Assembly (NCBI GenBank): GCA_036268595.1
Contig: DATATW010000063.1
Span: forward strand, 37,486 to 101,485
Source: Terriglobales bacterium
GTDB taxonomy: Bacteria > Acidobacteriota > Terriglobia > Terriglobales > Acidobacteriaceae
Direction of reading: 5' to 3'
DNA: 64,000 bases
The notes beneath the pieces are model-generated. The model did no database searches and was not told where the DNA came from. It saw only the letters and a program-made list of their open reading frames with translations. The first letter of the stretch is position 1; every line of letters starts with the position of its first letter. A program made the position numbers and the translations under genes. Positions 1,526 to 57,653 of the stretch are shown piece after piece.

Positions 1526-1527
1526 CG

Positions 1528-2004
1528 ATGCCTTTATCAGACGTACAGAGAAACAACATTGTGGAAGTGGCGAAGAGTTGGCTTGGGACGCCGTATCGGG
1601 GTTGGTCCGCGATCAAAGGCTCGAAGGGCGGCGTGGATTGCGGTCAGTTACTCAAAGCGGTTTATTTAGAAGCAGGGCATCGTCCAGGAGATGGTGTGCC
1701 TCTGCCCACAGATTATTCGCTGCAAGTCTGTCAGCACAGAGAAGACCCTGAATACATCAACACCGTTATGCGTTACATGCGAGAGATTTCTGAGACAGAA
1801 GCCAAGCCAGGAGACACGGTTGTATACAAGCTGGATCACGCATTCGCACATGCGGGAATCATCGTCGGTTGGCCTGACTACATCATTCACGCCATCGGGC
1901 GTCATGGCGTTATCGGTGGACACGGAACTAAGGAACCACGATTTCAGAAATGTCAGCGAAAGTTTTTCACGCCGTTCGATGAGCACTGTGGGGAAGAGAA
2001 GTAA
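1528..2004 (+). CDS. NlpC/P60-family cell-wall peptidase (RcGTA g14-like)
   Basis: It has the catalytic-Cys context 'GGVDCGQLLKAVY' and a downstream His region 'HAFAHAGIIVG'. Size is 158 aa, and its stop overlaps the next start (TAATG at 2002-2006). Confidence 0.7.
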   Translation: MPLSDVQRNNIVEVAKSWLGTPYRGWSAIKGSKGGVDCGQLLKAVYLEAGHRPGDGVPLPTDYSLQVCQHREDPEYINTVMRYMREISETEAKPGDTVVYKLDHAFAHAGIIVGWPDYIIHAIGRHGVIGGHGTKEPRFQKCQRKFFTPFDEHCGEEK

Positions 2005-5000
2005 TGGGATTCGGACAACAGCAGCAACCGACGAAACTTAATCAAGCGCAGATCAACCAGTCTGCCTACGGATACCCACTGCCTTGGGTAATGGGAACAG
2101 CTCGTATTCAGCAATCTCTTCTCTGGGAAGATGGGTTCGGAGCACAGACCGTCAACATTCAAGGCGGCAAGGGCGGCGGCAAGGGTGGCACAGAATATCT
2201 TTATTTTGTCGACTGCGTTGCGGCCCTTTGCAATGGGCCAATCCTTGGCATCGGAGATGTCTGGTCGGGGCAAAGCTGGCTCGGTCTGCCAAACGCCACT
2301 GAAAGCTACACAATCGCAGCACCAGGCATCTATACGCCGACCAATGCACCAGCGGTTGTCACGAGCAGCAACAATCAGCTAATTGATGTTGGCGTGGGTC
2401 GCAGCATCGGCTACAGCGGCACATTCCACGATCTTGGTGCTCCTGCTGCAACAGTTCTGAGCGGCTCGTATTTGGCGTCGTTCATAAAGGTGCCGTTCGG
2501 GACAACTCTCACTAGCGGAACCTACAGCATCAATCCAAATTCAATCGGAACATTCACGCTGACTTCTGTTGCGAATGCCTCAGGCGGCAACACCGCCTAC
2601 ACAGGCACGATCACAGGAGGTGGTTCGAATGCTTTCGCTGGATACACATTCACGATTGCTGGGTTCACCAACGCTGCGAACAACGGCTCGTTCGTCTGCG
2701 CCTCATCTACAGCCACGACATTAACTTTGCAGAACGCTAGCGGCGTTGCTCAGACCCATGCAGCCACAGCGACGGAGCCAGGGAACACATATCACTTCGA
2801 TGCCACGCACGATGCAGGCAAGACCCTGACGCTGACGTACAGCTTCTATCTGCCAAACATCACGGAAACTGAGACCGACATCGTTCCAGCAGGCAAGCAG
2901 ATCGTCGTCGGGGGATCACTCCAGTTCCTGACGGACTTGGGCGTGGTGTATACGGCAGGACCGAATAACGGCACGAGGCTCACCAAGGTGAACACCGCGC
3001 CGACAGTGACAGGAACTTATCAGTGCATCCCGAGTGGTCACGGCGGAACGTACAAGTTCGCCACTGGCGACATCAGCGCACAGGTGCGTATCACGTGGAT
3101 CACACAAGACCTCAGCATCGTGCCTCAAGGCGCACCTAGGTCTCTCAACTTTCAGTTGTTCGAGGGCGCACAGGGACAAGGCACATGGAGTGTTCTCACT
3201 TCAAAATATCCAGGCGCAGCGTTGGGCTATTCGTCCAAGGCATATGTCGCATATCACCCGATGGCGCTCGGAACATCTGGCCAGATTTCTAACAACACAT
3301 TCGAGGTCGTAACGCCTGACATCTACGGTGGAGGAATAAAAGACTGCAATCCAATTCAGTGCATTGGGCAGGTGCTCACTAATCAGCAGTGCGGCTTGGG
3401 AGTTGGTCTCGTTGCATTCCCAACGAGCGTGATTGATAACGGGCCGAACGGCACGTGGGGAGGCGCACCTTCCATCCCAGGCAGCAGTCAGCTCGGGAGC
3501 ACAGCATGGAACTGGTTCGCAGCTAATAACTTCTTCATCTCGCCTGTGCTCGATTCGCAGGACACCGCAGCCAGCACATTAGGCAAATGGCTGGAAGCTG
3601 GCATGTGCGCTGCGTTCTACAGCGAAGGTCTGCTCAAGCTCGTGTCTTACGGCGACACCACCACGGCTGGTAATGGCTGCACTTGGACTGCGCCAACCGC
3701 TTATGCCGTCGCATTGGACGACACATGCTATGTCGGCAAAGAAGGCGAAGATCCAGTCAAGATCACCCGCAGTGCTCCTCAGGACGCGATGAATGCGGTC
3801 CAGGTGCAGTGGAACAATCGCAGCAATCAGTATTCACCTGAGATCACGCAGGAATCCGATCAGGCTTCAATCAACAAGTGGGGAGAGAGAAGGGAAGACC
3901 CGCAGAACTGGGATTTCATTCACACGCTGACGGCCGCAACGTTTGCTGCCAATATGCGTGTGAAGCACAACGTCTACATCCGCAACACTTACGAATTCAC
4001 GCTGCCATTCACCTACTCATATCTGGAGCCGATGGACATTATCTCCCTCAGCACCACGAGCACATGGGCCGTCGGTCTCAACAACGCAAATCTCGGACTG
4101 GTGAATCAGCCAGCTCGCATCACCAAGATCGTTGACGATCCGCTGACTGGCTTGGCGATCACTTGCGAGGATTATCCGTGGGGTGCCCACCTTCCGACGA
4201 TCTACAACAAGGCAATTAGCACAGCGAATGTGGTGTCGAACGCTTATGCCAATCCTGGCAACGTTGAAGTTGTAATGTTCGAGGCAACATCTCGTCTTAC
4301 GGGATATGCAGGCAACACTATCTGCATCGGTGTTTGCGGCACTAGCAGCAATTACGGAAGCACGAACATCTGGGTATCAAGAGACAACACCAATTTCGAG
4401 CAGGTAGGAACCATTCAAGCTCCAGCAAGATTAGGAGTATTGCACAGCACGTTTGCATCAGGCAGCGATCCTGACACAGTGAACTCGCTGGTGATCGACC
4501 TCGCAGAGAACTGCGGCGCATTAGAAGCAGGAAGCACCGCAGATGCCGATAATCACGTCACGCTGTGCTTCGTGGACGGAGAATATATCGCTACCAGCGC
4601 AATGGCGCTCAGCGGTCAACAGCAGTACACAGCGAATGGATACATACATCGTGGACTACTCGGCACAACGATCAGCAGCCATGCGGCGGGAAGTGTGTTC
4701 ATGCGCCTCGATCAAAGCATATTTAAGTATCAATATGACCCGACGTGGGCTGGGCAGACTTTATATTTCAAGTTTCAACCCGTAAACGCATTTGGAAATT
4801 CTGCAACGCCATTGGCGAATTTGGGTTCTCAGGCATTCACAGTGCCTGGTGCCAATCCTGGAACTGTTGAGGCGGCAAGCGGTCTAGTCATCGCCCATAA
4901 ACCTAGCGGTGCTGACACGCTGGGCTGGGCTCCAATTACCACTACCACAGATGCGGGCGTTAACTACGGAATCAGTGTAACTGGATCAGCAGCTCTCCCT

Positions 5001-7970
5001 GCTAGTGTGAACACTACGTACACGTATGCACGCTGGGTTGGGTACCTCATTCCGAGCGTAACAGGCGTCCACACGATTGGCGTGAACTCCGACGACGGAA
5101 CTAACCTCTTCATCGGAACACAACAACTCATAAATAACCTGCCTGCTGGACAAGGTGCGAACGGTTCTCTCGCATACACGCAGAATGGCACTATCAGTCT
5201 CACCAAGGGCGTCTACTACCCCATTCTGCTTGAATGGCAGAACGGTGTAGGCAACTACGAAATTCAGCTCGCTTGGACGCAACCGAGCGGCTCTATTCAG
5301 CTCATCCCCGCTGGTAATTTGTCCACAAGCAATACGAGTATTACCAGCAATCTTGCAGGTTCATGGTGGAACGGCACTTCAGGGTTATGGTTCCCGAGCG
5401 GACCGGGAACAATCGACTTTGCCAGCAATGTTCACCCCAACAAAATTCTCGACAACATCGGAGACGGCCCAAGCTTCGTGCGGCTGTTGGCTTCACGTGC
5501 AGTCGGCAACGTCGCCTATAACTTCCGTGGCATCTGGGTATCGGGTACCACCTATCTTCAGGGTGACGAAGTCATCTTCGGTCAAAGTTATTGGGTTGCT
5601 CTCGCCGGAAGTCTGAACTCATCTCCGAACACAGGCAATTCAAACTGGCAGGTAGTCGGCTCATATAGCGGCTTTCAAGGCGCATGGTCTAGCTCGACCG
5701 CATACATCGCTGGAGCGGAAGTCACCTTCGGCGGAAATTATTGGGTCTGTGTTACAGGCAACACGAACTCGACTCCTAGCACATCGAATGCAAACTGGCA
5801 GGTCGCAGGGCCGAGCAGCTTGGACAACATAGCGGATGGCGGCGTCTATTTGCGCACCAGCTACATCGCTGGAGATGCGCTGCTGGACAATGGCAACTTT
5901 GAATCCAGTAGTTCAATCCTTCCACCACCTGGCTACACGCCTTATGCCAATACCGCAACGCTGGCTTACGACACGACCACTCAATTCAGTGGCGCACAGA
6001 GTATCAAGATCACGAGTCCAAGCGCAGGTGGTGCTGGCATATTACCGATAAAGAAGGTCATGTGTCGTCCTGGCGACGTATTCTTTGCTAGCGCGCGCGC
6101 GAAATGGATCAGCGGGTCGGGTGCCGCTGATCTGTCTATAAGTTTCCGAAACGCCAGTGGAACGGGCATCGGTGGTTCTGACGTAACCACTTCATCTAGC
6201 TCTTGGACACTCCTTACCAACACTCAGACTGCACCAGCAGGAACGGTGTATGCCACGTTCGAGATTTATGCAAATGCTGCGAACACCACCGTTGAGTTCG
6301 ACGAACATTACATTCGTTGCGTCCGCAACCTCGATACCGAAATTTCTGATGGCACGACTTACGGCAAGGTGAATCAGACCGCATTGACGGGAAACAATGT
6401 TGATCCTTCAAAAAGTGGCGTCCTCGCGAAGGGCAGCATTCCGTCTAGTCAGAACGCCATCACGCTGAACGGAATGACGTGGACTACCAGCACAACAGGT
6501 GTGACATTCTCTTGGACTCAGACGCCGATATTCCGAGTGGACGGAAGTATCAGCGGATTCATTGCAGGCGGTTCGCAAGCAATCTCGGGATTGCTGGCAG
6601 CTAATTCTTATACCGCCTACCCATACTGGGATGAACCATCGCAAACAATGAGATGGCTGTCCACGGATGTTGTGTTCCCGACCATAACGAGTGTGGGATT
6701 GAATGGAAGCAGCCAGTACCTCACAACCACTACGTCTGCGAACTCGCTGCCCTCCGTGTTTTCTCTTGAAGCATGGATTAAGACAACGGCAGTCAGCGGC
6801 CAGCAAGTTATCATGTCCTTGGCTGCACCGCAGACGGGTACGGGTGCTCCAACCCACGAAGACATGATATGGACGATTGGCCCTGCTGGAAACATAAACT
6901 TCCAGTACGTCAACAGTGGCGGAACGGTTCAGAGTTCCACGACAACCAGCGCGACTGTCAATGACGGTGCGTGGCATCACATCGTGCTCTCGTTCGCGAG
7001 TGGCGGAAACATCACTATTTATGTGGACGGTGCCAGCGCAGGAACTGCCAGTTCGCAGGGTGCTCCGAGGAATGCAGGCTTCGCTCTATGGTATCGAATG
7101 GGATTTGGCCCAGCGAATGCAAGTTTCTTGACCACCAGCAATAGCTTCTTCAACGGCAGTCTCGGTCAGATTGCCCTGTACACCACTGCTCTGTCATTGG
7201 CACAGGTGCAGAATCACTTCATAACTGGTGTGAACGTCGGCTTTAACAACAGTGCGGCGAGTGCTTATCCTGCTGCTGTAGTGGCAGACGGAGCAACTTA
7301 TTACTGGAAGTTGAATGATACTTCGGGAACCACTGCGGTTGAAACCATCAGCGGCACTAATGGGGGAACCTACACAGGAACACCGATATTGAACCAACAG
7401 AATCCGATTGTAGTGCCCAGCGGCTCACCCTCATATATGTTTCCATTCAAGAATTTCCTCTGCACGCAAGCGCAGAATCTCCAGAGCCGCATCGCGCTAT
7501 CAAGCGGTGCGCTGAACCCCACTACCGCGACGAGTGGAACAGGGAATGGAAGTGGTGGTGGTACGGGAGGCGGTGGTCGAGGAGGATGCTGGAGCGGCAA
7601 CACGCTCATCCGCACTCAGTCGAATCCTGTCCGTATCGACCGATGGGTTGACGGAACCAAGGCGCTCACAGCAGCAGGAACATGGGAGCGGTTCGCGCTG
7701 AAAGTCCATGAAGCGAAACGCTGGCAGATGATTGACCCGCTCGACAACGGCGAGTTGGTGACGATTATGCATTTTGTACTTGCGGACGAGGGCTGGAAGC
7801 GAGCGCACATTGCCTATCCAGGCAAGGAAGTGACCGTGCTCGAAGATCGCGTCTATGACCTCGTGAGTATGGACCTGCATGAAACCGAAGCACAGGCATT
7901 GTCATTGACGACAGCACACAGCTACACACTGGAATCAGGCATCGTGGCGCACAACGTATTGCCGAAATAA
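2004..7970 (+). CDS. Giant phage host-specificity / tail fibre protein (1988 aa), multi-domain
   Basis: The N-terminal region resembles lambda-J / Phage-tail_3 proteins ('NPIQCIGQVLTNQQCGLGVG'). There is a PA14-like segment at about 4956-5320 ('YARWVGYLIPSVTGVHTIGVNSDDGTNLFIG...YYPILLEWQNG'). Two ~45-aa sugar-binding-type repeats ending in 'NWQV(V/A)G' lie at about 5528-5812. A LamG/concanavalin-like segment lies at about 6757-7220 ('DGAWHHIVLSF...IYVDG...FNGSLGQIALY'). A Gly-rich linker and a Hint domain follow. Confidence 0.88.
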   Translation: MGFGQQQQPTKLNQAQINQSAYGYPLPWVMGTARIQQSLLWEDGFGAQTVNIQGGKGGGKGGTEYLYFVDCVAALCNGPILGIGDVWSGQSWLGLPNATESYTIAAPGIYTPTNAPAVVTSSNNQLIDVGVGRSIGYSGTFHDLGAPAATVLSGSYLASFIKVPFGTTLTSGTYSINPNSIGTFTLTSVANASGGNTAYTGTITGGGSNAFAGYTFTIAGFTNAANNGSFVCASSTATTLTLQNASGVAQTHAATATEPGNTYHFDATHDAGKTLTLTYSFYLPNITETETDIVPAGKQIVVGGSLQFLTDLGVVYTAGPNNGTRLTKVNTAPTVTGTYQCIPSGHGGTYKFATGDISAQVRITWITQDLSIVPQGAPRSLNFQLFEGAQGQGTWSVLTSKYPGAALGYSSKAYVAYHPMALGTSGQISNNTFEVVTPDIYGGGIKDCNPIQCIGQVLTNQQCGLGVGLVAFPTSVIDNGPNGTWGGAPSIPGSSQLGSTAWNWFAANNFFISPVLDSQDTAASTLGKWLEAGMCAAFYSEGLLKLVSYGDTTTAGNGCTWTAPTAYAVALDDTCYVGKEGEDPVKITRSAPQDAMNAVQVQWNNRSNQYSPEITQESDQASINKWGERREDPQNWDFIHTLTAATFAANMRVKHNVYIRNTYEFTLPFTYSYLEPMDIISLSTTSTWAVGLNNANLGLVNQPARITKIVDDPLTGLAITCEDYPWGAHLPTIYNKAISTANVVSNAYANPGNVEVVMFEATSRLTGYAGNTICIGVCGTSSNYGSTNIWVSRDNTNFEQVGTIQAPARLGVLHSTFASGSDPDTVNSLVIDLAENCGALEAGSTADADNHVTLCFVDGEYIATSAMALSGQQQYTANGYIHRGLLGTTISSHAAGSVFMRLDQSIFKYQYDPTWAGQTLYFKFQPVNAFGNSATPLANLGSQAFTVPGANPGTVEAASGLVIAHKPSGADTLGWAPITTTTDAGVNYGISVTGSAALPASVNTTYTYARWVGYLIPSVTGVHTIGVNSDDGTNLFIGTQQLINNLPAGQGANGSLAYTQNGTISLTKGVYYPILLEWQNGVGNYEIQLAWTQPSGSIQLIPAGNLSTSNTSITSNLAGSWWNGTSGLWFPSGPGTIDFASNVHPNKILDNIGDGPSFVRLLASRAVGNVAYNFRGIWVSGTTYLQGDEVIFGQSYWVALAGSLNSSPNTGNSNWQVVGSYSGFQGAWSSSTAYIAGAEVTFGGNYWVCVTGNTNSTPSTSNANWQVAGPSSLDNIADGGVYLRTSYIAGDALLDNGNFESSSSILPPPGYTPYANTATLAYDTTTQFSGAQSIKITSPSAGGAGILPIKKVMCRPGDVFFASARAKWISGSGAADLSISFRNASGTGIGGSDVTTSSSSWTLLTNTQTAPAGTVYATFEIYANAANTTVEFDEHYIRCVRNLDTEISDGTTYGKVNQTALTGNNVDPSKSGVLAKGSIPSSQNAITLNGMTWTTSTTGVTFSWTQTPIFRVDGSISGFIAGGSQAISGLLAANSYTAYPYWDEPSQTMRWLSTDVVFPTITSVGLNGSSQYLTTTTSANSLPSVFSLEAWIKTTAVSGQQVIMSLAAPQTGTGAPTHEDMIWTIGPAGNINFQYVNSGGTVQSSTTTSATVNDGAWHHIVLSFASGGNITIYVDGASAGTASSQGAPRNAGFALWYRMGFGPANASFLTTSNSFFNGSLGQIALYTTALSLAQVQNHFITGVNVGFNNSAASAYPAAVVADGATYYWKLNDTSGTTAVETISGTNGGTYTGTPILNQQNPIVVPSGSPSYMFPFKNFLCTQAQNLQSRIALSSGALNPTTATSGTGNGSGGGTGGGGRGGCWSGNTLIRTQSNPVRIDRWVDGTKALTAAGTWERFALKVHEAKRWQMIDPLDNGELVTIMHFVLADEGWKRAHIAYPGKEVTVLEDRVYDLVSMDLHETEAQALSLTTAHSYTLESGIVAHNVLPK
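7587..7967 (+). other. Hint (intein / bacterial intein-like) domain forming the last 127 aa of the tail protein
   Basis: Four intein blocks are readable. Block A is 'CWSGNTLIRT', directly after 'GGGGRGG'. Block B (TxxH) is 'VTIMH'. Block F is 'VYDLVSM'. Block G is 'GIVAHN', followed by only 'VLPK' and the stop. Confidence 0.8.
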
Positions 7971-10224: not shown

Positions 10225-10592
10225 TGGTGGAGGCGGCGGGAGTCGAACCCGCGTCCGAAAATGTTACTGGTCAAGAGACTACATGCTTATTCTCGTTCAT
10301 GCCCTTGGCATTACCCAAAGACGTTCGCGACCGCCGCTCAGAACGGACAAGAAACGGATGCCGCTAGCCTGAAGTCTTAACCTCTCTGCCCAGACGTAGC
10401 AGAGAAGAGCAGCCCGCTGTGTGACGTCCGCTCGCAGCCCACGGGCGAAGCTGCGGAAGACGGCAACTTAATTAATTAAGCTGCGTATGCCATCTGTTGA
10501 TTGGCAATTATCATTTTGCCCACGATTACAGGTGCGAGCACCCTGGCATGCCTCTTGGCCGCAAGCATCTCCGTCGAAGCCGTGACGCCCCC
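10225..10592 (-). ncRNA. ssrA: tmRNA (transfer-messenger RNA)
   Basis: The reverse complement begins 'GGGGGCGTCACGGCTTCGACGG' and ends 'GCGGGTTCGACTCCCGCCGCCTCCACCA'. The 7-bp acceptor stem has a G3:U wobble. The internal tag ORF is 'GCC AAT CAA CAG ATG GCA TAC GCA GCT TAA' (ANQQMAYAA). Confidence 0.93.
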
Positions 10593-35284: not shown

Positions 35285-36649
35285 ATGAATGCTGCAGTCG
35301 CACAGGAACTCTGGAAAGGCCAGACCATCGATGGAAAGTTTCCCCTGCTTGAATGGCTAGGCGGTTCCACGCATAGCGCTGTATTCCGCACTCAGTTGCC
35401 AGGCTCATCGATGCAACCCGCGGCGATCAAACTGGTTCGCGCCGATCGTCCTGATGCCGCGCAACAGATTGCAGCCTGGCGCGGATTGGTAACGCTATCG
35501 CATTCTCACCTGCTTCGAATCTTCCACGCGGGCCATTGCCAGATGAGCGGTGCGCCCTGGCTCTACGTGGTGACGGAATATGCCGAAGAAAATGTGGACC
35601 AGGTGTTGCCGGTGCGTCCGCTTTCGATGACAGAAGTTGGCGAACTGCTGCCGCCGGTGATCGAATCGCTTTCGTTCCTGCATTCAAAACATCTGGTGCA
35701 TGGGCGGCTTAAGCCCTCAAACATCTGCGCAGTAAAAAATCAGTTGAAGCTTACGACCGACAGCGTTCATCCGGCTGCTCAGCCGTTTACTCCATATTCC
35801 CTGACGGCCTACGATGCTCCTGAATCTGAATCTGGACGGCTGCCTCCCGCCGCGGACATGTGGTCGCTGGGCATGACGCTGGTGGCGGCCTTTGACCAGC
35901 GGCCTTTGACCTGGAGCCGTTCCAACACTGTGGATCCAGTTGTGCCGAAATCAATTCCCGCGCCCTATGCGCAGATTGCGCGTGAATGCCTGCGCATGAA
36001 TCCTGAGGATCGATGCACACTTTCGAGGCTCAGGGATCTGGTTCACCAGGCGCCGCCGCTGCCGAAGCCGCCGGTTCCTAAAGCGACAGGGCGGAAAAAA
36101 GTAGTAGCGCCGCTGATCGCCGTGCTGGTTGTCGGAGCAGTGATTTTTGCGGTTAGATCGAAGCACTCAACTCCAAGTGAGCCCGCGGTAGTAGCTCCTG
36201 CGGAGCAACAAGTTCCGCCGGCTGAACAACCGACGACCAATTCCGCTGACCAGAAACCGACAGCGTATGCGCCTAAGACCGATGCAGCCGTCCCACCTGC
36301 GGTCACTCATGAAAGTTCTCCCAAGCCGCCGGTGAGAGTTGTCGAATCCGTGCCCACGACTCCAGGCGTAGTAAACCAGGTTCTGCCGCAAGTTCCTTTG
36401 AGCGCCCGCGAGACGATTCATGGAAAAGTCAGAGTAAAGGTGCAAGTCCAGGTGGGGCCGAATGGAGACGTTTCGGATGCGTCCTTCATCTCCCCGGGGC
36501 CTAGCAGGTATTTTGCGCGTCTGGCAATGGAAGCGTCGCGCCAGTGGAAATTCCAGCCCGGTCAGCCAACGCCCGCGCACTGGGTCCTCGAATACAGGTT
36601 CGGTAGAACCTCGACTGAAGTCACTCCCGTCGCCGTCCCCGGTAAGTAG
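35285..36649 (+). CDS. Ser/Thr protein kinase-fold protein (predicted pseudokinase) with TM segment and TonB C-terminal-like domain
   Basis: The kinase subdomains 'AAIKLV', 'YDAPE', 'DMWSLGMTLV' and 'CLRMNPEDRCT' are readable. The catalytic loop reads 'HGRLKPSN' instead of HRDLKPxN, and there is no DFG. The C-terminus, 'IHGKVRVKVQVQVGPNGDVSDASFI...ARLAMEASRQWKFQP', is TonB_C-like. Confidence 0.8.
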   Translation: MNAAVAQELWKGQTIDGKFPLLEWLGGSTHSAVFRTQLPGSSMQPAAIKLVRADRPDAAQQIAAWRGLVTLSHSHLLRIFHAGHCQMSGAPWLYVVTEYAEENVDQVLPVRPLSMTEVGELLPPVIESLSFLHSKHLVHGRLKPSNICAVKNQLKLTTDSVHPAAQPFTPYSLTAYDAPESESGRLPPAADMWSLGMTLVAAFDQRPLTWSRSNTVDPVVPKSIPAPYAQIARECLRMNPEDRCTLSRLRDLVHQAPPLPKPPVPKATGRKKVVAPLIAVLVVGAVIFAVRSKHSTPSEPAVVAPAEQQVPPAEQPTTNSADQKPTAYAPKTDAAVPPAVTHESSPKPPVRVVESVPTTPGVVNQVLPQVPLSARETIHGKVRVKVQVQVGPNGDVSDASFISPGPSRYFARLAMEASRQWKFQPGQPTPAHWVLEYRFGRTSTEVTPVAVPGK

Positions 36650-38337: not shown

Positions 38338-38362
38338 CGCGTCCCAGGGTGGGACGCGTTTT
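38338..38362 (+). terminator. Rho-independent terminator (plus strand)
   Basis: An 8-bp GC stem 'cgcgtccc'/'gggacgcg' with the loop 'agggt' is followed by 'tttt'. It overlaps the 3' end of the convergent minus-strand gene. Confidence 0.55.
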
Positions 38363-38895
38363 CAGACTGCGAAGCCAGAGTCGGAAGCAGCGGCGGGGCC
38401 CGCGTCGATCACAGCTTTAACGACGGGCTCGGCGATAGTGACTTCGGGAACTGGCGGACGCATGAGATTCCAGGCTTCGCGGTACAGTTCGAATGAGGAC
38501 GTCTTGAGTCCGGGCCTGAGATAGACAGCGCTGCGATTTTCTATCAACTCCACTGGAAAGACGTACCAAATGCTTTCGGGGAAAAGGTAGGCAACCAGGA
38601 AGTCAACGTCATCGCGAGAATATAGACTCCTGTGATTTCCAGTCGTCCGCACACGAAAGTGCGGCCTTCCGGACGCTTTGGACCAAACGGATTTTATCTG
38701 GACACGCCAAAAAACTTTACCGATGCGAACGATTACGTCGTAACGGTCACAATCTCCCCAAGGCTTGGCGACGGCGAAGCCAAGAGTGGCCGCTTTTCGC
38801 ATAAAGGCAAGTTCGGCCAACTCGCCGCGATGTTTGCGGTCGAGCCTGGCGGCATGCAGTAATTCATCCTTTAGAGTCTCTTCCAATATTCCCAA
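38362..38895 (-). CDS. PD-(D/E)XK-family endonuclease (PDDEXK_5 / group-I-intron-endonuclease-like)
   Basis: 'GELAELAFMRKAATLGFAVAKPWGDCDRYDVIVRIGKVFWRVQIKS' fits the G-D...YD...(hydrophobic)-Q-(I/V)-K-S/T core of this family. The start is the TTG at 38895 or a downstream codon. Confidence 0.65.
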   Translation of the reverse strand: MGILEETLKDELLHAARLDRKHRGELAELAFMRKAATLGFAVAKPWGDCDRYDVIVRIGKVFWRVQIKSVWSKASGRPHFRVRTTGNHRSLYSRDDVDFLVAYLFPESIWYVFPVELIENRSAVYLRPGLKTSSFELYREAWNLMRPPVPEVTIAEPVVKAVIDAGPAAASDSGFAV

Positions 38896-39101: not shown

Positions 39102-39130
39102 CCCACCCTTTGAAAACCGCAAAGGGTGGG
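39102..39130. repeat. REP-like hairpin of the CCCACCCTTT-loop-AAAGGGTGGG family
   Basis: It has a perfect 10-bp stem with the loop 'gaaaaccgc'. Related copies lie at 42630-42658, 52844-52875, 57369-57397 and 57455-57484. Confidence 0.85.
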
Positions 39131-39468
39131 CCAGCTCAGTATCGGTAATGCAGGCAAGGGAAAAGGTGGGCCAGCCCACCAAGGTGCGCCCGACGACAGC
39201 GCGGGGTCGGTGCTGTTCCCCAGGAGCCAGCGCCAGCCACCCGCAACATTCCACAGCCTCAGAATGCGCGTGGATACTGAAGAACTCAAAGACAGCAGCG
39301 TTACTTGATCGGTTGGGTCAGCCGCACCACAGGTTAGCCGGTTGCCACTAACTATGAGCTAGCGAACACTATACGATCTTAGATAAATCATAATTAGTGT
39401 CACTTGTTTGTTTCTTATCATTGACATATGACAATTACTAAAACGTAATCGTATGAAACAGAAGGAGA

Positions 39469-39497
39469 TATATAAAACGTTAGAACCACCATGACAA
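39469..39497 (-). promoter_or_regulatory. Sigma70-like promoter candidate on the minus strand inside repeat unit 1 (TTGTCA-17-TATATA)
   Basis: The -35 reverse complement is at 39492-39497 and the -10 reverse complement at 39469-39474. The same signal is conserved in unit 2. Confidence 0.35.
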
Positions 39498-39837
39498 GCT
39501 ATAGCAAAATAGTGGAAACTTTCCATTCTCCAGATCCGATATCGGGACGCAAGGTGCGCCCGACGACAGCGCGGGGTCGGCGCTGTTCCCCAGGAGCCAG
39601 CGCCAGCCACCCGCAACATTCCACAGCCTCAGAATGCGCGTGGATACTGAAGAACTCAAAGACAGCAGCGTTACTTGATCGGTTGGGTCAGCCGTACCAC
39701 AGGTTAGCCGGTTGCCACTAACTATGAGCTAGCGAACACTATACGATCTTAGATAAATCATAATTAGTGTCACTGGTTTGTTGCTTATCATTGACATATG
39801 ACAATACGCAAACGCAAGCGTCTCAAACAGAAGGAGA

Positions 39838-39865
39838 TATATAAAACTTGTAACCACAATGACAA
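39838..39865 (-). promoter_or_regulatory. Sigma70-like promoter candidate on the minus strand inside repeat unit 2 (TTGTCA-16-TATATA)
   Basis: The -35 reverse complement is at 39860-39865 and the -10 reverse complement at 39838-39843. Confidence 0.35.
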
Positions 39866-40143
39866 GCTATAGCGAAATATTGGAAACTTTCCATTCTCCA
39901 GATCCGATATCGGGACGCAAGGTGCGCCCGACGACAGCGCGGGGTCGGTGCTGTCCCCAGGAGCCAGCGCCAGCCACCCGCAACATTCAACGGCCTCAGA
40001 ATGCGCGTGGATACTGAAGAACTCAAAGACAGCAGCGTTACTTGATCGGTTGGGTCAGCCGCACCAACTTAAGCGAAGACGTGATCGGCTATGCGATGAC
40101 GCCACGGTGCGTATGATATGGACAAGTAATTTCGTATTCAGTA

Positions 40144-40203: not shown

Positions 40204-40623
40204 ATGCGGTTTGAAGGAATTGTAGTTGTGCGAAAAGCAGCCGAAAGTGCCGTAGCGGACATGCATGCCGGACCGATGCAGATCGCGGCCTTTCAGACAA
40301 TCCTTTCTCACCTTCTTCAGGACGCACGGAACGGCGGGCGTGTTGGGTCAGTAAATTCTGTTAAGACAATTAGCAGAAAACGGAGCCTTGGGGGAATGCG
40401 GGCTAATGGGACTACGGCGCGCCTGCTGAGTCTAATTAATGAAGGAGTCTTCAGTCAGAGTCGATCCCTGGCCGAAATTCGTCAAGCGCTGTCGGAGCGC
40501 GGCTGGCAATATCAACCTGAGGACCTCGGAACTCCGTTAACTCGACTTGTCCAACGCGGGTATCTCAGGCGCACCCAAGAATCCAACGGCGGAAAGAAGC
40601 TGTGGAGATACTCCACTGCCTAG
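40204..40623 (+). CDS. Small winged-helix (wHTH) protein, operon gene 1
   Basis: The C-terminal 'LLSLINEGVFSQSRSLAEIRQALSERGWQYQPEDLGTPLTRLVQRGYLRRTQESNGGKKLWRY' has a wHTH-like pattern (helix-turn-helix, then a basic wing). The start is possibly the downstream Met at aa 20. Confidence 0.6.
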   Translation: MRFEGIVVVRKAAESAVADMHAGPMQIAAFQTILSHLLQDARNGGRVGSVNSVKTISRKRSLGGMRANGTTARLLSLINEGVFSQSRSLAEIRQALSERGWQYQPEDLGTPLTRLVQRGYLRRTQESNGGKKLWRYSTA

Positions 40624-40631
40624 GAGAAACG

Positions 40632-40985
40632 ATGGCACTCGCGAAAATCAGTATACCTGGCGGAATTTCCGTCGAGATTGATGGCACGCCGGACGAGGTG
40701 AGCTCGGTTCTTCAGAACCTGAAGTCCAAGCACGCCCCTGCGTTGCCCAGAGGGAGAGCCGAAAGGCGCAAAGCTGGTCGGGGTGACATCCCAGGGCTAA
40801 TCGTCGCGCTCAAGTCGGAGGAATTTTTCAAATCGCCTAAAGGCTTATCCGACATCCAGGCGAAACTAGCCGAATTGGGGCACCACTATCCGTTGACAAC
40901 GATGTCGGGAGCCATGCAGAGCCAATGTAAGAACAGGAATTTGCGAAGATTCAAGCAGCATGGAAAATACGTTTATGTGCAGTGA
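40632..40985 (+). CDS. Small winged-helix protein, operon gene 2 (C-terminal pattern parallels gene 1)
   Basis: AGGAG lies 5 nt upstream of the ATG at 40632. 'LIVALKSEEFFKSPKGLSDIQAKLAELGHHYPLTTMSGAMQSQCKNRNLRRFKQHGKYVYV' parallels gene 1. Confidence 0.65.
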   Translation: MALAKISIPGGISVEIDGTPDEVSSVLQNLKSKHAPALPRGRAERRKAGRGDIPGLIVALKSEEFFKSPKGLSDIQAKLAELGHHYPLTTMSGAMQSQCKNRNLRRFKQHGKYVYVQ

Positions 40986-41012
40986 AACGGTCTTATTTAA
41001 GGAGAACGCCAC

Positions 41013-41555
41013 ATGGCGAAATCAGTTAATTATTCCGAAGTTGATGCGATGAAGGATATCGACGGGGCACTCGCGAAAATCGATGTGGAGGCTCAACAGA
41101 GAGTCCTTGAATGGGCATCCTCTAAGCACGGAGTGAAACTGAGGGCGCAATTCGATGTGGACGTAAGCTCCCCGCATCAGAAGTCGCCCCAGCCACAACG
41201 CGCGACAGACATAAAGGCGTTCCTGGTCCAAAAGCGGCCCGAGAGCTTTTACGAACGGGTAGCTTGTTTGGTCTATTTCCTGGAGAAATTCGCCGACCAG
41301 GCAGAAGTCGGCACGAAGGATATAAGTAAAGCAAACTCGGATGCTCGCCTCTCAAAGCTTACAAACCCCGCCGTATTTGTAAAGCATGCCACCCACACAT
41401 ACGGGTACCTTACTGCACTTGGCAAACGAAAATTCGCGATCTCTGCTAGAGGGGAGGCCGTAGTCGAAGCTCTGCCCGATCGAACCAAGGTGGAAGAGGC
41501 GCTCGCAGCAAATCCTTTCGGCAAAAAAGCTCGAAGAAAACGGAGCAAGAAGTGA
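41013..41555 (+). CDS. wHTH-like protein with basic tail, operon gene 3
   Basis: AAGGAGA lies upstream. It contains 'IKAFLVQKRPESFYERVACLVYFLEKF...GTKDISKANSDARLSKLTNPAVFVKHATHTYGYLTALGKRKFAISARGEAVVEAL' and then 'KKARRKRSKK'. Confidence 0.65.
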   Translation: MAKSVNYSEVDAMKDIDGALAKIDVEAQQRVLEWASSKHGVKLRAQFDVDVSSPHQKSPQPQRATDIKAFLVQKRPESFYERVACLVYFLEKFADQAEVGTKDISKANSDARLSKLTNPAVFVKHATHTYGYLTALGKRKFAISARGEAVVEALPDRTKVEEALAANPFGKKARRKRSKK

Positions 41556-42322
41556 TCAGCCCGAGAATCAGAGCGGCGCTTCTGGGACACTTTCCTGAAA
41601 CCGTCGTTGATCAATTATTGGAGTGCTTCGAAGAACAAAGGAGAAATCTACTCCTAGGTAAACTGCGACCGAACGAGGTCGAGGGTGGCCGCTTTGCAGA
41701 AGCAGCCTTCAGGATGCTAGAGCACGCCGGCGGCTTCGCCATCACCGCCATTGGTACTCAGTTAAACACTGACAGCCTGATACGGCAACTCGCCGCCTTG
41801 CCAGCGGGCGCCGCGCACGAGTCCGTGCGACTGCACATTCCTAGAACTCTGCGAGTCATCTATGACATCCGTAACAAACGAGACGCTGCCCACCTCGCTG
41901 ATGGCATCGACCCCAACTTGCAGGACGCGACTTTGGTCTCAGCATCAGCGGATTGGGTGCTGGCGGAGTTTGTCCGCCTTGGAGGGGGAGTAAGCCCGGA
42001 TGAAGCTTTTAGGCTGGTAAAGGCAATCACCGTCCAGCGTATCCCGGCCGTGGAGGATATTCAGGGATTTCTGAAAACTCTTAGACCTTCGCTCGGCCCA
42101 GGCGACCGAATCTTACTCCTTCTGTACAGGCGCGCTGATTGCGGAGCAACAAAGGAAGAACTCGAGAAATGGCTTAGGCCCTCTCAGCGAAGGAACCTCC
42201 TGCGAACACTACACCAGCTGGAGCACGACAAAGACCTCATCGTGCTCGTGAACGGCAGATGCCAAATCACCCGGAGAGGTATACAGGAGGCGGAACGCAA
42301 GAAGCTTCTCGAGGTGGAGTAG
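41552..42322 (+). CDS. HEPN (Abi_C-type) domain protein with C-terminal wHTH, operon gene 4
   Basis: Its GTG start overlaps the gene 3 stop (GTGA). The motif 'IRNKRDAAH' (Rx6H) closely parallels the RNKxGDAH signature I recall for the Abi_C/AbiJ HEPN. It sits in a helical context. The C-terminal 'LLLLYRRADCGATKEELEKWL...LLRTLHQLEHDKDLIVLVNGRCQITRRG' is wHTH-like. Confidence 0.7.
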   Translation: MISPRIRAALLGHFPETVVDQLLECFEEQRRNLLLGKLRPNEVEGGRFAEAAFRMLEHAGGFAITAIGTQLNTDSLIRQLAALPAGAAHESVRLHIPRTLRVIYDIRNKRDAAHLADGIDPNLQDATLVSASADWVLAEFVRLGGGVSPDEAFRLVKAITVQRIPAVEDIQGFLKTLRPSLGPGDRILLLLYRRADCGATKEELEKWLRPSQRRNLLRTLHQLEHDKDLIVLVNGRCQITRRGIQEAERKKLLEVE

Positions 42323-42500
42323 CCTAGCGCCCGGCGGGCTGCCCCAGGCTTTTGATCTTGTGGCATTACCAACACAGTGGGTGGCCCCGTCCGTTGCCTT
42401 CTCGGCGAAGGGCGGGAGTCGGAAATGCCCGCGCCAAGTGAGTTTGATCACGTGTCCACAACAAAATCAAATAGCACTCGCAGCATCGCCGGCGGGCTGG

Positions 42501-42658
42501 CCCACCCTTTGAACCACACTAAAACAGCTGCCCCACCGTTCGTGCTTTTCGAAGGTTGGGTATCGCCATGCGTAGATTTGGTGCGGGTTACCAGAGACAG
42601 AACATCTCGTGGCGCAATCGTTCGAGGTGCCCACCCTTTGAAAACCGCAAAGAGTGGG
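42501..42658. repeat. Cluster of REP-like CCCACC.../...GGTGGG hairpins
   Basis: The cluster contains 'cccaccctttgaacc...', 'ccccaccgttcg...cgaaggttggg', and 'cccaccctttgaaaaccgcaaagagtggg' (42630-42658). Confidence 0.75.
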
Positions 42659-42761
42659 GCGCCCTCAGTTGTGGTGGTTACCAGCGCGGAAGGTTGGGCC
42701 AGCACTCGCTTATTCCCATCTCTCGCAGACGGGACATGGCATGCGGCTGGGAGGTCCTGTC

Positions 42762-43673: not shown

Positions 43674-43718
43674 GCCGAGCTTGCGCTCGGCAGGACAGCC
43701 GAGGGCGGCTGTCCCCAC
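43674..43718. repeat. Double-hairpin REP element, copy 1
   Basis: 'gccgagc ttgc gctcggc a ggacagccg agg gcggctgtcc ccac' forms two adjacent perfect hairpins. It is identical to 43911-43955. Confidence 0.9.
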
Positions 43719-43770
43719 ATGGTTTGTTACAGGGTTTGTTTCATGGTTTGTTTCATGATTTGTTTATGAA
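43718..43770. repeat. Short tandem stutter of (ca)tggtttgttt-type words
   Basis: The sequence 'catggtttgttacagggtttgtttcatggtttgtttcatgatttgtttatga' is readable directly. Confidence 0.8.
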
Positions 43771-43910: not shown

Positions 43911-43955
43911 GCCGAGCTTGCGCTCGGCAGGACAGCCGAGGGCGGCTGTCCCCAC
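43911..43955. repeat. Double-hairpin REP element, copy 2
   Basis: It is a 45-nt perfect direct repeat of 43674-43718, lying 237 bp downstream. Confidence 0.9.
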
Positions 43956-44042
43956 GTGATCGCTACAGGTTCGCAAATAGGCAGTTCGCGGGGGTTCTGC
44001 TAACATCCTGCGCAGTCCGAGGAGGTCTTCCAGGAACCGCGA

Positions 44043-55587: not shown

Positions 55588-57366
55588 GTGGACAATAAAT
55601 CCATCGCTGGAATTTTGTATGAAACGGCCGACCTGCTGGAAGTCGACGGGCAGGATTCGTTCCGTATCCGGTCGTATCGCAATGCCGCCGAGGCGATTGA
55701 AGGGCTATCGCAGCAAATTGCCGACCTCATAGAGGATCCCAAGCAGGTGCTGGCGATTCCCGGCATCGGCAAAGGCATGCTCAACAATTTGAAAGAAATG
55801 CTGCATGAGGGAAAGCTTTCGTTGCATGCCGAAATGCTGAAGAAATACCGGCCATCGATGCTGGAGTTGCTTAGGGTACAGGGGCTGGGGCCGAAAACTG
55901 TGGCGCTTATCTGGAGCGCTTATCAGGTTTGCGATCTGGAGGGAGTGGAAAAGCTGGCGCGGGAGGGAAAAATACGCGAGCTGCCGCGGATGGGAGAGAA
56001 ACACGAGCAGAAAATATTGAAGGCGATCGAAGATTACCGGAGGATCGCGGGACGTTTTTTGCTGAACGTCGCAGAGGTGCAGGCAGAAAAAATCGCGGAA
56101 CATCTGAAGGACTATCCAGGGGTTGAGAACGCGGTTCCGGCGGGTTCGCTTAGGCGTGGGCGTGAGACTGTGGGCGATCTCGACATTCTGCTGACTGGGC
56201 CGGCATGTTGCGATGACGTGGAGCGGGAAAAATTGATTGAGCACATCATCAAACTGCCCGGGCTGATGGAGATCATTGCGCGCGGCGAGAACAAGGTAAG
56301 TTTCCGCTTGCGCGGTGGAATGCAGGTGGATGTGCGGTTTCTGCCGCCGGAATCATTCGGGGCGGCGATGCAGTACTTCACTGGATCGAAGGGACACAAT
56401 GTCGCGTTGCGACAGCGGGCGCTGAAGATGGGTTACACGTTGAACGAATACAGCCTGGCGAAGCTGGATGATCAGCAGGTGGTGGCGGGGAAATCGGAAG
56501 AAGAGATTTATGCGGCGCTGAATCTGGATTACATCCCTCCGGAGATGCGGGAGAATTGCGGCGAGATAGACGCGGCGGAGAAACACGCGTTGCCGAAGCT
56601 GATCGTGCAGGATGATCTGCAGGGCGATGTGCATATGCACACTATCGAAACCGACGGGCGAAACACGATCAGCGAGATGGCGGAAGCGGCGCGCGAACGC
56701 GGGTACAAATATATGGCCATCACCGATCATTCCAAAAACCTGGCTTTCGCCAACGGGCTTGACGATGCGCGGGCACTCGAGCACATCAAGCGGATTCGGG
56801 CGACCAACGATACCATCGAAGGCATCAAGATTTTTGCCGGAATCGAGGTCGATATTCTGGCCGACGGGTCTCTTGACCTTTCCGATTCGGTGCTCGAGCA
56901 GATGGATGTGGTGATTGCCAGCGTGCATTCGCACTTCAATCAATCGGCGGAGGAAATGACTGCCCGGTTGCTCCAGGCGATTGAGAACCCGAACGTCTCG
57001 ATCATTGGGCATCCGACGGGGCGCATTCTGTTGCGCCGGGATGCATATCCTTATGACATGGATGCGGTGCTCGAGGCTGCGGCACGGCATAAAGTTGCGA
57101 TGGAGTTGAACGCGTACCCAGACCGACTCGATCTTTCGGACCGGCACTTGCGAATGGCCAAGCAACGAGGCGTCAAGATCGTGATCAATACTGACTCGCA
57201 TCACACCACGCACCTGGAGAAAATGCGCTACGGAGTGCTGCAGGCGCGGCGAGCCTGGCTGACTTCGGGGGATGTGTTGAACACGTTGCCGGTAGATCAG
57301 TTTGCTTCGGCCATGAAGCATGAGTGGCCGGCGTCCACTGCTGCGCCTGACTTCATTCTTTCGTAG
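55588..57366 (+). CDS. polX: Family X DNA polymerase with C-terminal PHP domain
   Basis: It has N-terminal HhH motifs ('IRSYRNAA', 'IPGIGKGM', 'GLGPKT'), a palm region 'GSLRRGRETVGDLDILL', and a PHP region 'GDVHMHTIETDG'. The start is GTG. Confidence 0.9.
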   Translation: MDNKSIAGILYETADLLEVDGQDSFRIRSYRNAAEAIEGLSQQIADLIEDPKQVLAIPGIGKGMLNNLKEMLHEGKLSLHAEMLKKYRPSMLELLRVQGLGPKTVALIWSAYQVCDLEGVEKLAREGKIRELPRMGEKHEQKILKAIEDYRRIAGRFLLNVAEVQAEKIAEHLKDYPGVENAVPAGSLRRGRETVGDLDILLTGPACCDDVEREKLIEHIIKLPGLMEIIARGENKVSFRLRGGMQVDVRFLPPESFGAAMQYFTGSKGHNVALRQRALKMGYTLNEYSLAKLDDQQVVAGKSEEEIYAALNLDYIPPEMRENCGEIDAAEKHALPKLIVQDDLQGDVHMHTIETDGRNTISEMAEAARERGYKYMAITDHSKNLAFANGLDDARALEHIKRIRATNDTIEGIKIFAGIEVDILADGSLDLSDSVLEQMDVVIASVHSHFNQSAEEMTARLLQAIENPNVSIIGHPTGRILLRRDAYPYDMDAVLEAAARHKVAMELNAYPDRLDLSDRHLRMAKQRGVKIVINTDSHHTTHLEKMRYGVLQARRAWLTSGDVLNTLPVDQFASAMKHEWPASTAAPDFILS

Positions 57367-57368
57367 TT

Positions 57369-57484
57369 CCCACCGTACGAAAACCGCGTAGGGTGGGGCA
57401 CCCTCGCTGGCGTACGGCGTACCCTGCTTCACCTCACTTCATGGTTTCGTGGTTCCCACCGTACGAGAATCGCGTAGAGTGGGG
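57369..57484. repeat. Two tandem REP-like hairpins (CCCACCGTACG-loop-CGTAGrGTGGG)
   Basis: The copies lie at 57369-57397 and 57455-57484. Both are preceded by 'gttcc' and followed by 'gcaccctc'. Confidence 0.85.
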
Positions 57485-57653
57485 CACCCTCATTTGTGGT
57501 AGCTCAGGATAATCACGTCGCCACATTTTTGGGAGGAGTGGCTTTCCTACGAAAGTCAAAGGCGGCGGACAAGAGCGTCCGGCCCACACTCCCCAAAGTG
57601 GCCCACACGGGCATGGACTCGGCGAGTACAATTCCCAGAGCAGGAGGAGACCC

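Follow-up and report, generated by a model that had tools for sequence, protein, structure and literature searches.

An overlapping gene pair for a winged-helix protein and a predicted HEPN RNase, with a long-period repeat array, in an acidobacterial genome

A 64,000-nucleotide stretch of a Terriglobales genome (Acidobacteriota; GenBank assembly GCA_036268595.1, contig DATATW010000063.1, positions 37,486 to 101,485), referred to here as the window, contains four co-oriented, translationally coupled genes, g1 to g4, that span positions 40204-42322 and lie downstream of an array of long repeats. Comparison with other loci indicates that only two of these genes, the pair g3-g4, form the conserved unit. 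The g4 protein represents a family, H, of predicted metal-independent HEPN endoribonucleases (RNases) fused to a C-terminal winged helix, and g3 (family B) encodes its winged helix-turn-helix (wHTH) partner. We read the cassette as a HEPN RNase effector that would be restrained or targeted by its wHTH partners in a toxin-antitoxin (TA)- or abortive infection (Abi)-like manner, with the array DNA serving as a platform for binding, and we put the chances of this reading at about even. The initial annotation had likewise proposed that the wHTH proteins restrain or target an RNase, an idea that the sequence evidence leaves plausible.

HEPN-based conflict modules are known; the HEPN family and the type of partner are new here, and the linked cis-array is unusual. 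Scans of g1-g4 against Pfam, NCBIfam, PADLOC, and PHROGs returned nothing significant, the PADLOC check of the locus proteins included, which agrees with the earlier statement that no named system has such a composition. Literature searches, which took in the HEPN census and recent papers on defence, likewise found no description of the cassette. If the prediction is correct, a class of RNase effectors of ~990 clusters at 50% identity is invisible to present annotation and defence-finding pipelines. An obligatory winged-helix partner, not MNT, CARF, or ATPase, would point to a different control of HEPN nucleases, and arrays tied to accessory adaptors would be an unusual cis-element. The minimal pair in Streptomyces isolates makes the cassette accessible in cultured organisms.

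The HEPN-like protein g4 and the small proteins encoded upstream

HEPN domains are recognised by an Rx4-6H motif with a polar residue (N/D/H) after the R and by an upstream acidic residue, typically in Ex3[KR]; domains retaining these hallmarks are predicted RNases, while inactive versions lose the hallmark residues (PMC3710099). The sequence IRNKRDAAH, singled out in the initial annotation, occupies g4 residues 106-114. An alignment of 91 distant g4 homologues (25-72% identity) revealed that R107 is kept in 91/91, N108 in 79/91 (S in 12), R110 in 90/91, and H114 in 90/91, so the expected conservation of R-x6-H among homologues is borne out. In the upstream motif, E50 is kept in 91/91 homologues, whereas position 54 is R in 80/91 and K in 2 others. 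Thus g4 displays both HEPN sequence hallmarks, and Rx6H and Ex3R are near-invariant in these homologues. Further invariant or nearly invariant residues of family H are D125, W135, E139, and R142.

The AlphaFold2 (AF2) model of g4 (predicted local distance difference test, pLDDT, 81.2) has a HEPN-like domain at the N-terminus followed by a wHTH, the opposite of the AbiJ order, as had been read from the sequence. A HEPN fold is typically an up-down bundle of four helices, some 100-150 residues long, that has an insert between helices 2 and 3. Helices of the g4 N-domain cover residues 16-34, 45-59, 90-107, and 126-145, with an insert at 60-89, between helices 2 and 3. Foldseek comparison with the PDB matched the g4 wHTH to MepR/HpaR with probability 1.0 and template modelling (TM) scores of 0.35-0.47. 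The best matches of the N-domain were the HEPN proteins TT1696 (1ufb), AF0298 (2hsb), and Csm6 (6tug), at E ~1 only, with target-normalised TM scores of 0.55, 0.60, and 0.21, respectively; leaving wHTH domains aside, g4 has no better structural matches than these HEPN proteins. For the structure check proposed for g4, the AF2 model, Foldseek, and motif conservation point to a HEPN-like domain plus wHTH, the fold matches of the N-domain being weak. Foldseek against viral structures gave wHTH matches only. PDB sequence searches with single proteins and profiles gave only weak wHTH matches, g4 itself finding chance-level matches (E at least 0.8) and the H wHTH profile finding TubR as its best match (E 0.01).

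Family H comprises 1929 clusters at 90% identity and 986 representatives at 50% by profile search, and its length is steady at ~255 aa. Pfam scans of family consensus sequences and longer members disclosed no fusions and only a weak Abi_C match. Abi_C is the Pfam family touched by most H members (5/91; best E 0.021), and residues 97-133 of an H sub-family consensus align to Abi_C positions 38-77 of 83. This alignment scores 12.5 bits, below the Pfam gathering threshold of 24, and the label 'Abi_C-type' first given to g4 does not hold. A Pfam scan of g4 for AbiJ_NTD found no match. The MarR and MarR_2 models are touched weakly by only 2-3 of the 91 H members and not by g4 of the window; a match to a well-characterised regulator family, for which the initial annotation had advised looking, did not reach threshold in any case. 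We conclude that g4 very probably represents an undescribed family of HEPN domains, one that has an AbiJ-like motif and lies outside Abi_C.

In the g3 model (pLDDT 81.9), a disordered linker joins a helical hairpin to a winged helix, and a basic tail follows (Table 1). Its best Foldseek matches are the wHTH domains of Rok, BpsR/MarR, and forkhead proteins (E 0.04-0.5), and Sso10a was also matched. All three upstream proteins had been described as ending in wHTH-like modules; this is upheld for g3 by AF2 and Foldseek, but g1 and g2 yielded weak hints only.

A C-terminal module common to g1 and g2 was detected by hhalign (probability 91%, E 1e-6, 53 columns), and the two are paralogues in that module; BLAST clustering was a further basis for the g2 assignment. 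The parallel C-terminal pattern reported for them is therefore real, except that the last motif of g1 reads GK-x4-Y and not GK-x2-Y. The g1 family displayed no significant relation to the g3 and g4 families in hhalign comparisons, and Pfam domains were absent from all 33 g1 homologues. By inspection, the small cassette proteins are modular, each with an N-terminal segment, a variable linker, and a C-terminal DNA-binding-like domain. The N-terminal segment is helical in g1, g3, and family C, and of an 'xIxIxxGxxxVxxxG + helix' type in g2, B', and the proteins of loci L001 and L017 (families B' and C are found in the sister loci described below).

The four proteins may hold as many as five wHTH domains, two of them structurally supported (g3 and the g4 C-terminus), and the cassette could instead be a non-toxic regulatory or nucleoid-associated module, in which the g4 N-domain is a ligand- or nucleic acid-binding bundle and four DNA-binding regulators serve a local or mobile-element function. 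The Rok-like best match of g3 and the AT-rich array suggest xenogeneic silencer-like binding, and the high conservation of H, its many housekeeping contexts, and the lack of a significant HEPN match are compatible with such a role. Nevertheless, Rx6H, the polar residue, and the upstream acidic residue are kept at 87-100%, whereas inactive HEPNs lose them (PMC3710099), and no regulator family threshold was reached. We regard a purely regulatory role as unlikely.

The B-H pair, its distribution and its genomic contexts

The four genes of the window are tightly packed, as first described. A gap of 8 nt separates g1 from g2 (junction TAGGAGAAACGATG), with an AGGAG Shine-Dalgarno (SD) sequence; 27 nt separate g2 from g3, which is preceded by an SD-like AAGGAG; and g3 and g4 share a GTGA overlap, with an SD-like GGAG before g4. 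The good SD sequences claimed for genes 2 and 3 were thus seen again. Because homologues exist for all four (counts: g4, 1929; g3, 122; g1, 33; g2 orthologues in seven loci listed below), g1-g4 are real genes. An identical g3 protein is on record from a Terriglobales metagenome-assembled genome, in keeping with the acidobacterial origin of the window. The operon had been placed in an AT-richer island; its region is barely lower in GC (0.51-0.53 at 39-41 kb vs ~0.55 for the whole window), but the repeat array is AT-rich (GC 0.47).

We compared 22 genome loci, 4 context look-ups, and 80 metagenome loci (numbered L001 onwards). A B-type gene lies within two genes upstream of H in 25/26 genome loci and in 19/19 metagenome loci examined, and the B-H spacing, a 4-nt overlap in the window, is -4 to +20 nt elsewhere. 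The nucleotidyltransferase partner (MNT) whose absence had been remarked upon is indeed missing: in none of ~45 loci do the cassette genes include a nucleotidyltransferase. The order g1-g2-B-H, with an orthologue of g2, recurs in L006, L008, L031, L032, L034, and L051; L035 has the same order with a truncated g1. The four genes thus co-occur outside this genome, in 7-8 loci, but the conserved unit is only g3-g4. In a sister sub-clade, the order is B'-C-H (L003, L005, L009-L013, L025, L039, L040, L043, L046). Because g1/g2 are replaced by B'-C in these sister loci and are absent in most phyla, gene order indicates that g1-g2-B-H is a clade-specific elaboration of a two-gene core.

The pair was found in Acidobacteriota, a Verrucomicrobiia bin, Bacteroidota, Nitrospiraceae (Nitrospirota), Planctomycetales (Planctomycetota), Saccharibacteria, Dormibacterota, Actinomycetota (Streptomyces isolates included), and one Nitrososphaera archaeon. 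This distribution is patchy over phyla and over both prokaryotic domains, and the flanks vary. Streptomyces anulatus has B-H only, with a 4-nt overlap and an H protein that is 43% identical to g4 and carries the motif DIRNSRDAAH. Its H gene, from CP109490.1, spans 8675-9433 of L028. Between the window and a Chitinophagaceae locus, H is 63% and B 38% identical, and the greater conservation of H fits the usual pattern of toxin vs antitoxin. The organisation as a whole fits a type II TA system, with overlapping B-H genes, a predicted DNA-binding partner, and an H protein more conserved than B.

The link to defence islands, which the initial annotation had advised testing, is modest: some loci lie in restriction-modification (R-M) or TA contexts, but many others lie among housekeeping genes. 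In L019 (a Planctomycetales metagenome-assembled genome, MAG; 1073-6726), AbiEi_4, HsdM, Bro-N, HsdS, B, and H are encoded on one strand with gaps of at most 13 nt; the contig stops ~340 nt past H, with a possible hsdR beyond view. In L027 (an Actinomycetota MAG; 1125-2015), a 296-aa protein is encoded directly upstream of B-H; it matches AbiJ_NTD4 weakly, carries the motif RSTRGDAH in its C-terminal part, and is on these grounds a candidate AbiJ-like second HEPN. Fic/Doc is encoded upstream of the cassette in L024, and a PIN_3 gene lies nearby in L016. The neighbourhood of L005 includes PIN, BrnA, HigB, and ParE modules, and that of L003 an AAA_15/21 ATPase and phage remnants. Overall, the association of the cassette with defence is suggestive. 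A ParA/CbiA-like ATPase and a RelA_SpoT-domain protein are encoded immediately upstream of the cassette in L001 (Chitinophagaceae; 4720-6515), and these two genes may be another conflict module.

The upstream repeat array and possible mechanisms

The array upstream of g1 is the sole one of its kind within the 64-kb window. It holds 2.4 copies of a ~370 nt unit with a period of 368-370 nt, the last copy being partial (~150 nt), and it ends 138 nt before the g1 start. The unusual tandem repeat mentioned in the initial annotation is therefore real, but it is a conserved component of the acidobacterial cassette and not a mere neighbour. Arrays of 350-392 nt period occupy the same place in 17 loci including the window (the others being L003, L005-L013, L025, L031, L034, L043, L046, and L051). 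Among genome loci of the acidobacterial clade, all 11 others have direct repeats spaced by 350-392 nt, and metagenome loci contributed 5 further arrays. Other phyla contributed 14 loci, none of which has a repeat of this period (one of 179 nt in L022 is unrelated), and downstream control regions contained a comparable repeat (spacing 150-700 nt) in 3 of ~24. Arrays occur only with accessory genes, and L036 (B-H only) and L035 (g1 5'-truncated) have none. The array belongs to the acidobacterial form of the cassette.

All arrays follow the architecture (R-X)n-R, with n = 1 or 2 and the partial copy always last. Copies of R within a locus are 91-100% identical, while orthologous R elements share 71-72%; such likeness within loci and divergence between them argues for concerted evolution. 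Whole units are AT-rich and diverge quickly, being ~70% identical between loci or undetectable, and blastn found no match to the window unit elsewhere. A coding function was rejected, as tblastx similarity is equal in all frames and copies differ by frameshifts. Searches of the arrays for the cassette families with hidden Markov models and tblastn found none, the lone L006 match being the g1 gene within the searched stretch. An antisense relation to the operon was also discarded, complementarity being not beyond chance. In four loci that belong to one clade at 50% identity (L094 2135-2753; L095, L097, and L098, ~1830-2690), a g1-like gene is overlapped by repeats 137-160 nt long and spaced by 459-565 nt; this looks like a partial gene duplication and not like a non-coding array.

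A candidate operon promoter, P1, was read from the sequence between the array and g1, although a consensus scan did not flag it. An equivalent TTGAC-N17/18-TAGnnT block is conserved in 10 related (B'-C-H) loci, ~40 nt upstream of where the first gene starts. With a promoter between array and genes, the array is not an mRNA leader. When the units of 10 B'-C-H loci were aligned, one conserved core of ~80 nt emerged, which consists of a 17-bp palindrome, TCA[AC]G-N7-C[GT]TGA, followed by a promoter-like block (TAAGTnnTTTGTTATCA) facing R. The palindrome pattern has 40 matches in the searched sequence vs 2-7 in shuffles, nearly all of them in arrays and one per unit; L009 and L010 keep two sites ~355 nt apart despite otherwise diverged units. 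In the sub-clade of the window, each array has its own per-unit palindrome, with no common consensus. From these patterns, we infer that the array may consist of phased operator/promoter modules for the cassette wHTH proteins.

On the reading that we favour, H would act as an RNase effector, with HEPN dimerisation forming the active site. B would keep H latent, target it, or both, by direct binding together with nucleic acid binding, and the wHTH domains would autoregulate the operon. In the acidobacterial form, the adaptors g1 and g2 would be added to B-H, and the array would serve as a DNA platform of repeated operator/promoter modules where the wHTH proteins assemble. The analysis establishes the gene structure, the predicted domains, the conservation of the motifs, the co-occurrence of the genes, and the form and conservation of the array, while RNase activity, toxicity, neutralisation by B, array binding, and a role in phage defence are what we infer for this cassette.

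Several observations weigh against this reading. Comparison of g4 with HEPN families and structures gave no significant match (Foldseek E ~1), g4 of the window has no Pfam match at E ≤1, Abi_C scores stay at or below 12.5 bits vs the cut-off of 24, and the model is at its least confident around the motif (pLDDT <50 for residues 115-123). B has no recognisable toxin-binding motif, and the hints of a wHTH fold in g1 and g2 from profile and hhalign comparisons are weak. Palindromes of the size seen in the window are expected by chance at ~2 per kb, so those of the window clade could be chance, and k-mer counts for one operator common to all arrays are barely above shuffles. Many cassette loci stand among housekeeping genes; phages have no match to H, and plasmids only one distant archaeal match. 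Finally, with 60-77% identity across phyla, the conservation of H is unusually high for a defence effector.

The 'n + partial copy' form of the arrays resembles that of type III antitoxin arrays, and this brings in a different role for the repeats, in which the promoter-like block of each unit would drive transcription of the array, and either the resulting RNA of unit length or the DNA of the array would, with the wHTH adaptors, cage the HEPN site until disturbed. Such a nucleic acid scaffold would be an analogue of the type IX retron independent of reverse transcriptase (RT), or a giant type III (ToxIN-like) arrangement. The conserved promoter-like block reading into R, the near-identity of R copies within a locus relative to orthologues, the restriction of the array to loci with accessory proteins, and the type IX retron precedent are in its favour. 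However, fold-energy z-scores of array units are inconsistent (+1.2 to -2.9) with no favoured strand, and an Rfam scan of the arrays found no match, leaving a structured RNA unsupported. The locus has no RT and is negative for retrons in PADLOC; the window has no terminator-like site on the + strand between array and g1; the operon promoter lies downstream of the array, which is not complementary to the operon; and in most phyla B-H occurs without any array. We consider either version of this scaffold rather improbable.

A related and similarly doubtful proposal, to which we would assign a small chance, is that the acidobacterial form is a new class of nucleoprotein-gated HEPN system, whose array (DNA or unit-length RNA) scaffolds the wHTH adaptors (g1, g2, and g3 or B' and C) that would keep the HEPN-wHTH RNase latent. 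The array, with its ~365 bp period, would then present one palindrome-plus-promoter module per unit, and an invader that disturbs the scaffold would release the RNase, in parallel with the type IX retron but without a reverse transcriptase.

Repeated DNA upstream of DNA-binding proteins is also what a maintenance or partition module of a small integrated element would have, the wHTH proteins being TubR/ParB-like centromere binders and the repeats a centromere-like site. TubR is the best PDB sequence match of the H wHTH profile, and some cassettes have integrases, a terminase remnant, or a ParA-like gene nearby. Yet the cassette contains no NTPase at any locus, 2-3 units of very long period are unlike known centromeres, flanking direct repeats are absent except for generic hairpins resembling REP (repetitive extragenic palindromic) elements, and the family is nearly absent from plasmids. 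A partition function therefore seems very unlikely.

Features of the window and of related arrays are collected in Table 1. The flanks of the operon include a kinase-TonB_C protein (35285-36649, +; a protein kinase domain, a proline-rich linker, and a C-terminal TonB_C domain), a PD-(D/E)XK_5 gene, a DUF3592 protein, and a queuosine-salvage protein; a downstream MiaB-like gene was assigned by reading its translation alone. The PD-(D/E)XK neighbour reported earlier exists but is not kept beside the cassette in other loci and is an incidental neighbour. A near-perfect hairpin, CCCACCCTTTGAAAACCGCAAAGGGTGGG, occurs only at 39102-39130 and 42630-42658, flanking array and operon, and several related elements lie within 42360-42760. 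The two hairpins are probably a REP-like intergenic element; they were rejected as island borders, given that similarity stops at the hairpin. Other intergenic repeats of the window are a 48-nt GC-rich hairpin-like repeat present twice (43674-43721 and 43911-43958), a 12-nt x 4 tandem repeat (43718-43765), and a 77-nt repeat present twice (57329-57491). A tmRNA gene lies at 10225-10592 (-; Rfam 172.6 bits; ARAGORN tag peptide ANQQMAYAA).

Table 1. Coordinates of the cassette, its domains and motifs, and associated elements (window positions or protein residues, except the last rows, which give positions in other loci)
Feature	Position	Strand	Basis or remark
g1	40204-40623	+	139 aa; open reading frame (ORF) list
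g2	40632-40985	+	117 aa; alternative GTG start at 40602
g3 (family B)	41013-41555	+	180 aa; ORF list
g4 (family H)	41552-42322	+	256 aa; ORF list
g1 wHTH-like C-terminal module	residues 69-139		preceded by N-terminal helical segment and variable linker
g2 N-terminal segment			AKISIPGGISVEIDG; beta-hairpin plus helix by inspection; differs from g1 N-terminus
g3 helical hairpin	residues 9-39		AF2 model
g3 disordered linker	residues 44-62		AF2 model
g3 winged helix	residues 67-166		AF2 and Foldseek
g3 K/R-rich tail	residues 167-180		AF2 model
g4 HEPN-like four-helix domain	~residues 1-158		AF2 model
g4 beta-hairpin	residues 165-177		AF2 model
g4 MarR-like wHTH	residues 183-250		AF2 model and Foldseek
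g4 Rx6H, predicted catalytic motif, R107-N108-K-R110-D-A-A-H114	41870-41893	+	homologue conservation
g4 upstream partner motif, E50-x3-R54	41699-41713	+	homologue conservation
Array (R-X)2-R	39180-40066		units 39180-39549 and 39550-39917; partial third copy 39918-40066
Perfect palindrome TGGAAACTTTCCA, one per unit	39513-39525 and 39881-39893		candidate operator
Candidate operon promoter P1	40144-40173	+	TTGACT, 18 nt, TAGGTT; read from sequence
PD-(D/E)XK_5 endonuclease gene	38362-38895	-	PF11645 E 1.7e-19; PADLOC 'HEase' E 1.4e-15
Palindrome sites, L003	6211/6603		
Palindrome sites, L005	6243/6610		
Palindrome sites, L009	4209/4564		
Palindrome sites, L010	4243/4587		
Palindrome sites, L011	4242/4608		
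Palindrome site, L012	4610		
Palindrome sites, L013	4281/4631		
Palindrome site, L025	4277		
Palindrome site, L043	609		
Palindrome site, L046	2121		

Comparison with known systems

AbiJ/Abi_C (PF14355; PMC3710099) shares with H an Rx6H-type motif of the pattern R-[NS]-x-R-[GD]-x-A-H ... D-A, and Abi_C is the only Pfam family repeatedly matched by H members. AbiJ genes that stand alone are likewise found in R-M operons. In AbiJ, however, the HEPN domain is C-terminal, after AbiJ-NTD1-5, whereas the HEPN-like domain of H is N-terminal and followed by a wHTH. Moreover, H scores far below the family cut-off and has an obligatory upstream wHTH partner gene.

The HEPN-MNT system (HepT-MntA) resembles B-H in being a tight two-gene module whose presumed toxin is a HEPN RNase and whose chromosomal distribution is sporadic and horizontally spread. 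In contrast, B-H has no nucleotidyltransferase in ~45 loci, its partner is a wHTH protein, and H carries a wHTH of its own. Neutralisation by AMPylation in the HEPN-MNT style is excluded because of this wHTH partner.

PrrC, an anticodon nuclease of the HEPN class, is encoded within a type I R-M locus (EcoprrI). In L019, B-H directly follows hsdM and hsdS in one operon, an arrangement like that of prrC in the prr locus (PMC3710099). This context was found in one locus only, and H has no NTPase domain, while PrrC has neither a wHTH nor a wHTH partner. The Csx1/Csm6 proteins (CARF-HTH-HEPN) also combine HEPN and helix-turn-helix in one polypeptide, and Csm6 is a weak match to g4; H differs from them in having no CARF domain, another domain order, and no CRISPR association.

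Type III TA systems (ToxIN, CptIN, TenpIN) share with the acidobacterial cassette a tandem array of direct repeats with a final partial copy immediately upstream of a predicted endoribonuclease operon. The cassette units, at 350-392 nt vs 36-45 nt, are about ten times longer, and the array has no structure signal and lies upstream of the operon promoter. The predicted effectors differ as well, H being HEPN-like and the type III toxins having the ToxN/AbiQ fold.

The type IX retron Retron-Kva2 consists of an RT, multicopy single-stranded DNA (msDNA), and a HEPN nuclease, together with a winged-helix (WH) protein (bioRxiv 10.64898/2026.07.14.738597; PMC7736814). Its WH protein and nucleic acid encircle the HEPN active site until a phage trigger (bioRxiv 10.64898/2026.07.14.738597). 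We propose a like logic for the cassette, for which the retron is a precedent. The cassette itself was rejected as a retron, since the locus has no RT: none is encoded in the cassette or the immediate window flanks, no msr/msd noncoding RNA was detected with Rfam, and sequence similarity between the two systems was undetectable (PADLOC negative). In the retron, the WH protein carries two additional domains that bind HEPN, and the HEPN nuclease lacks the canonical H; the Rx6H of g4 is canonical. The two systems nonetheless resemble each other in gene arrangement, in that a HEPN nuclease gene adjoins and overlaps a winged-helix gene.

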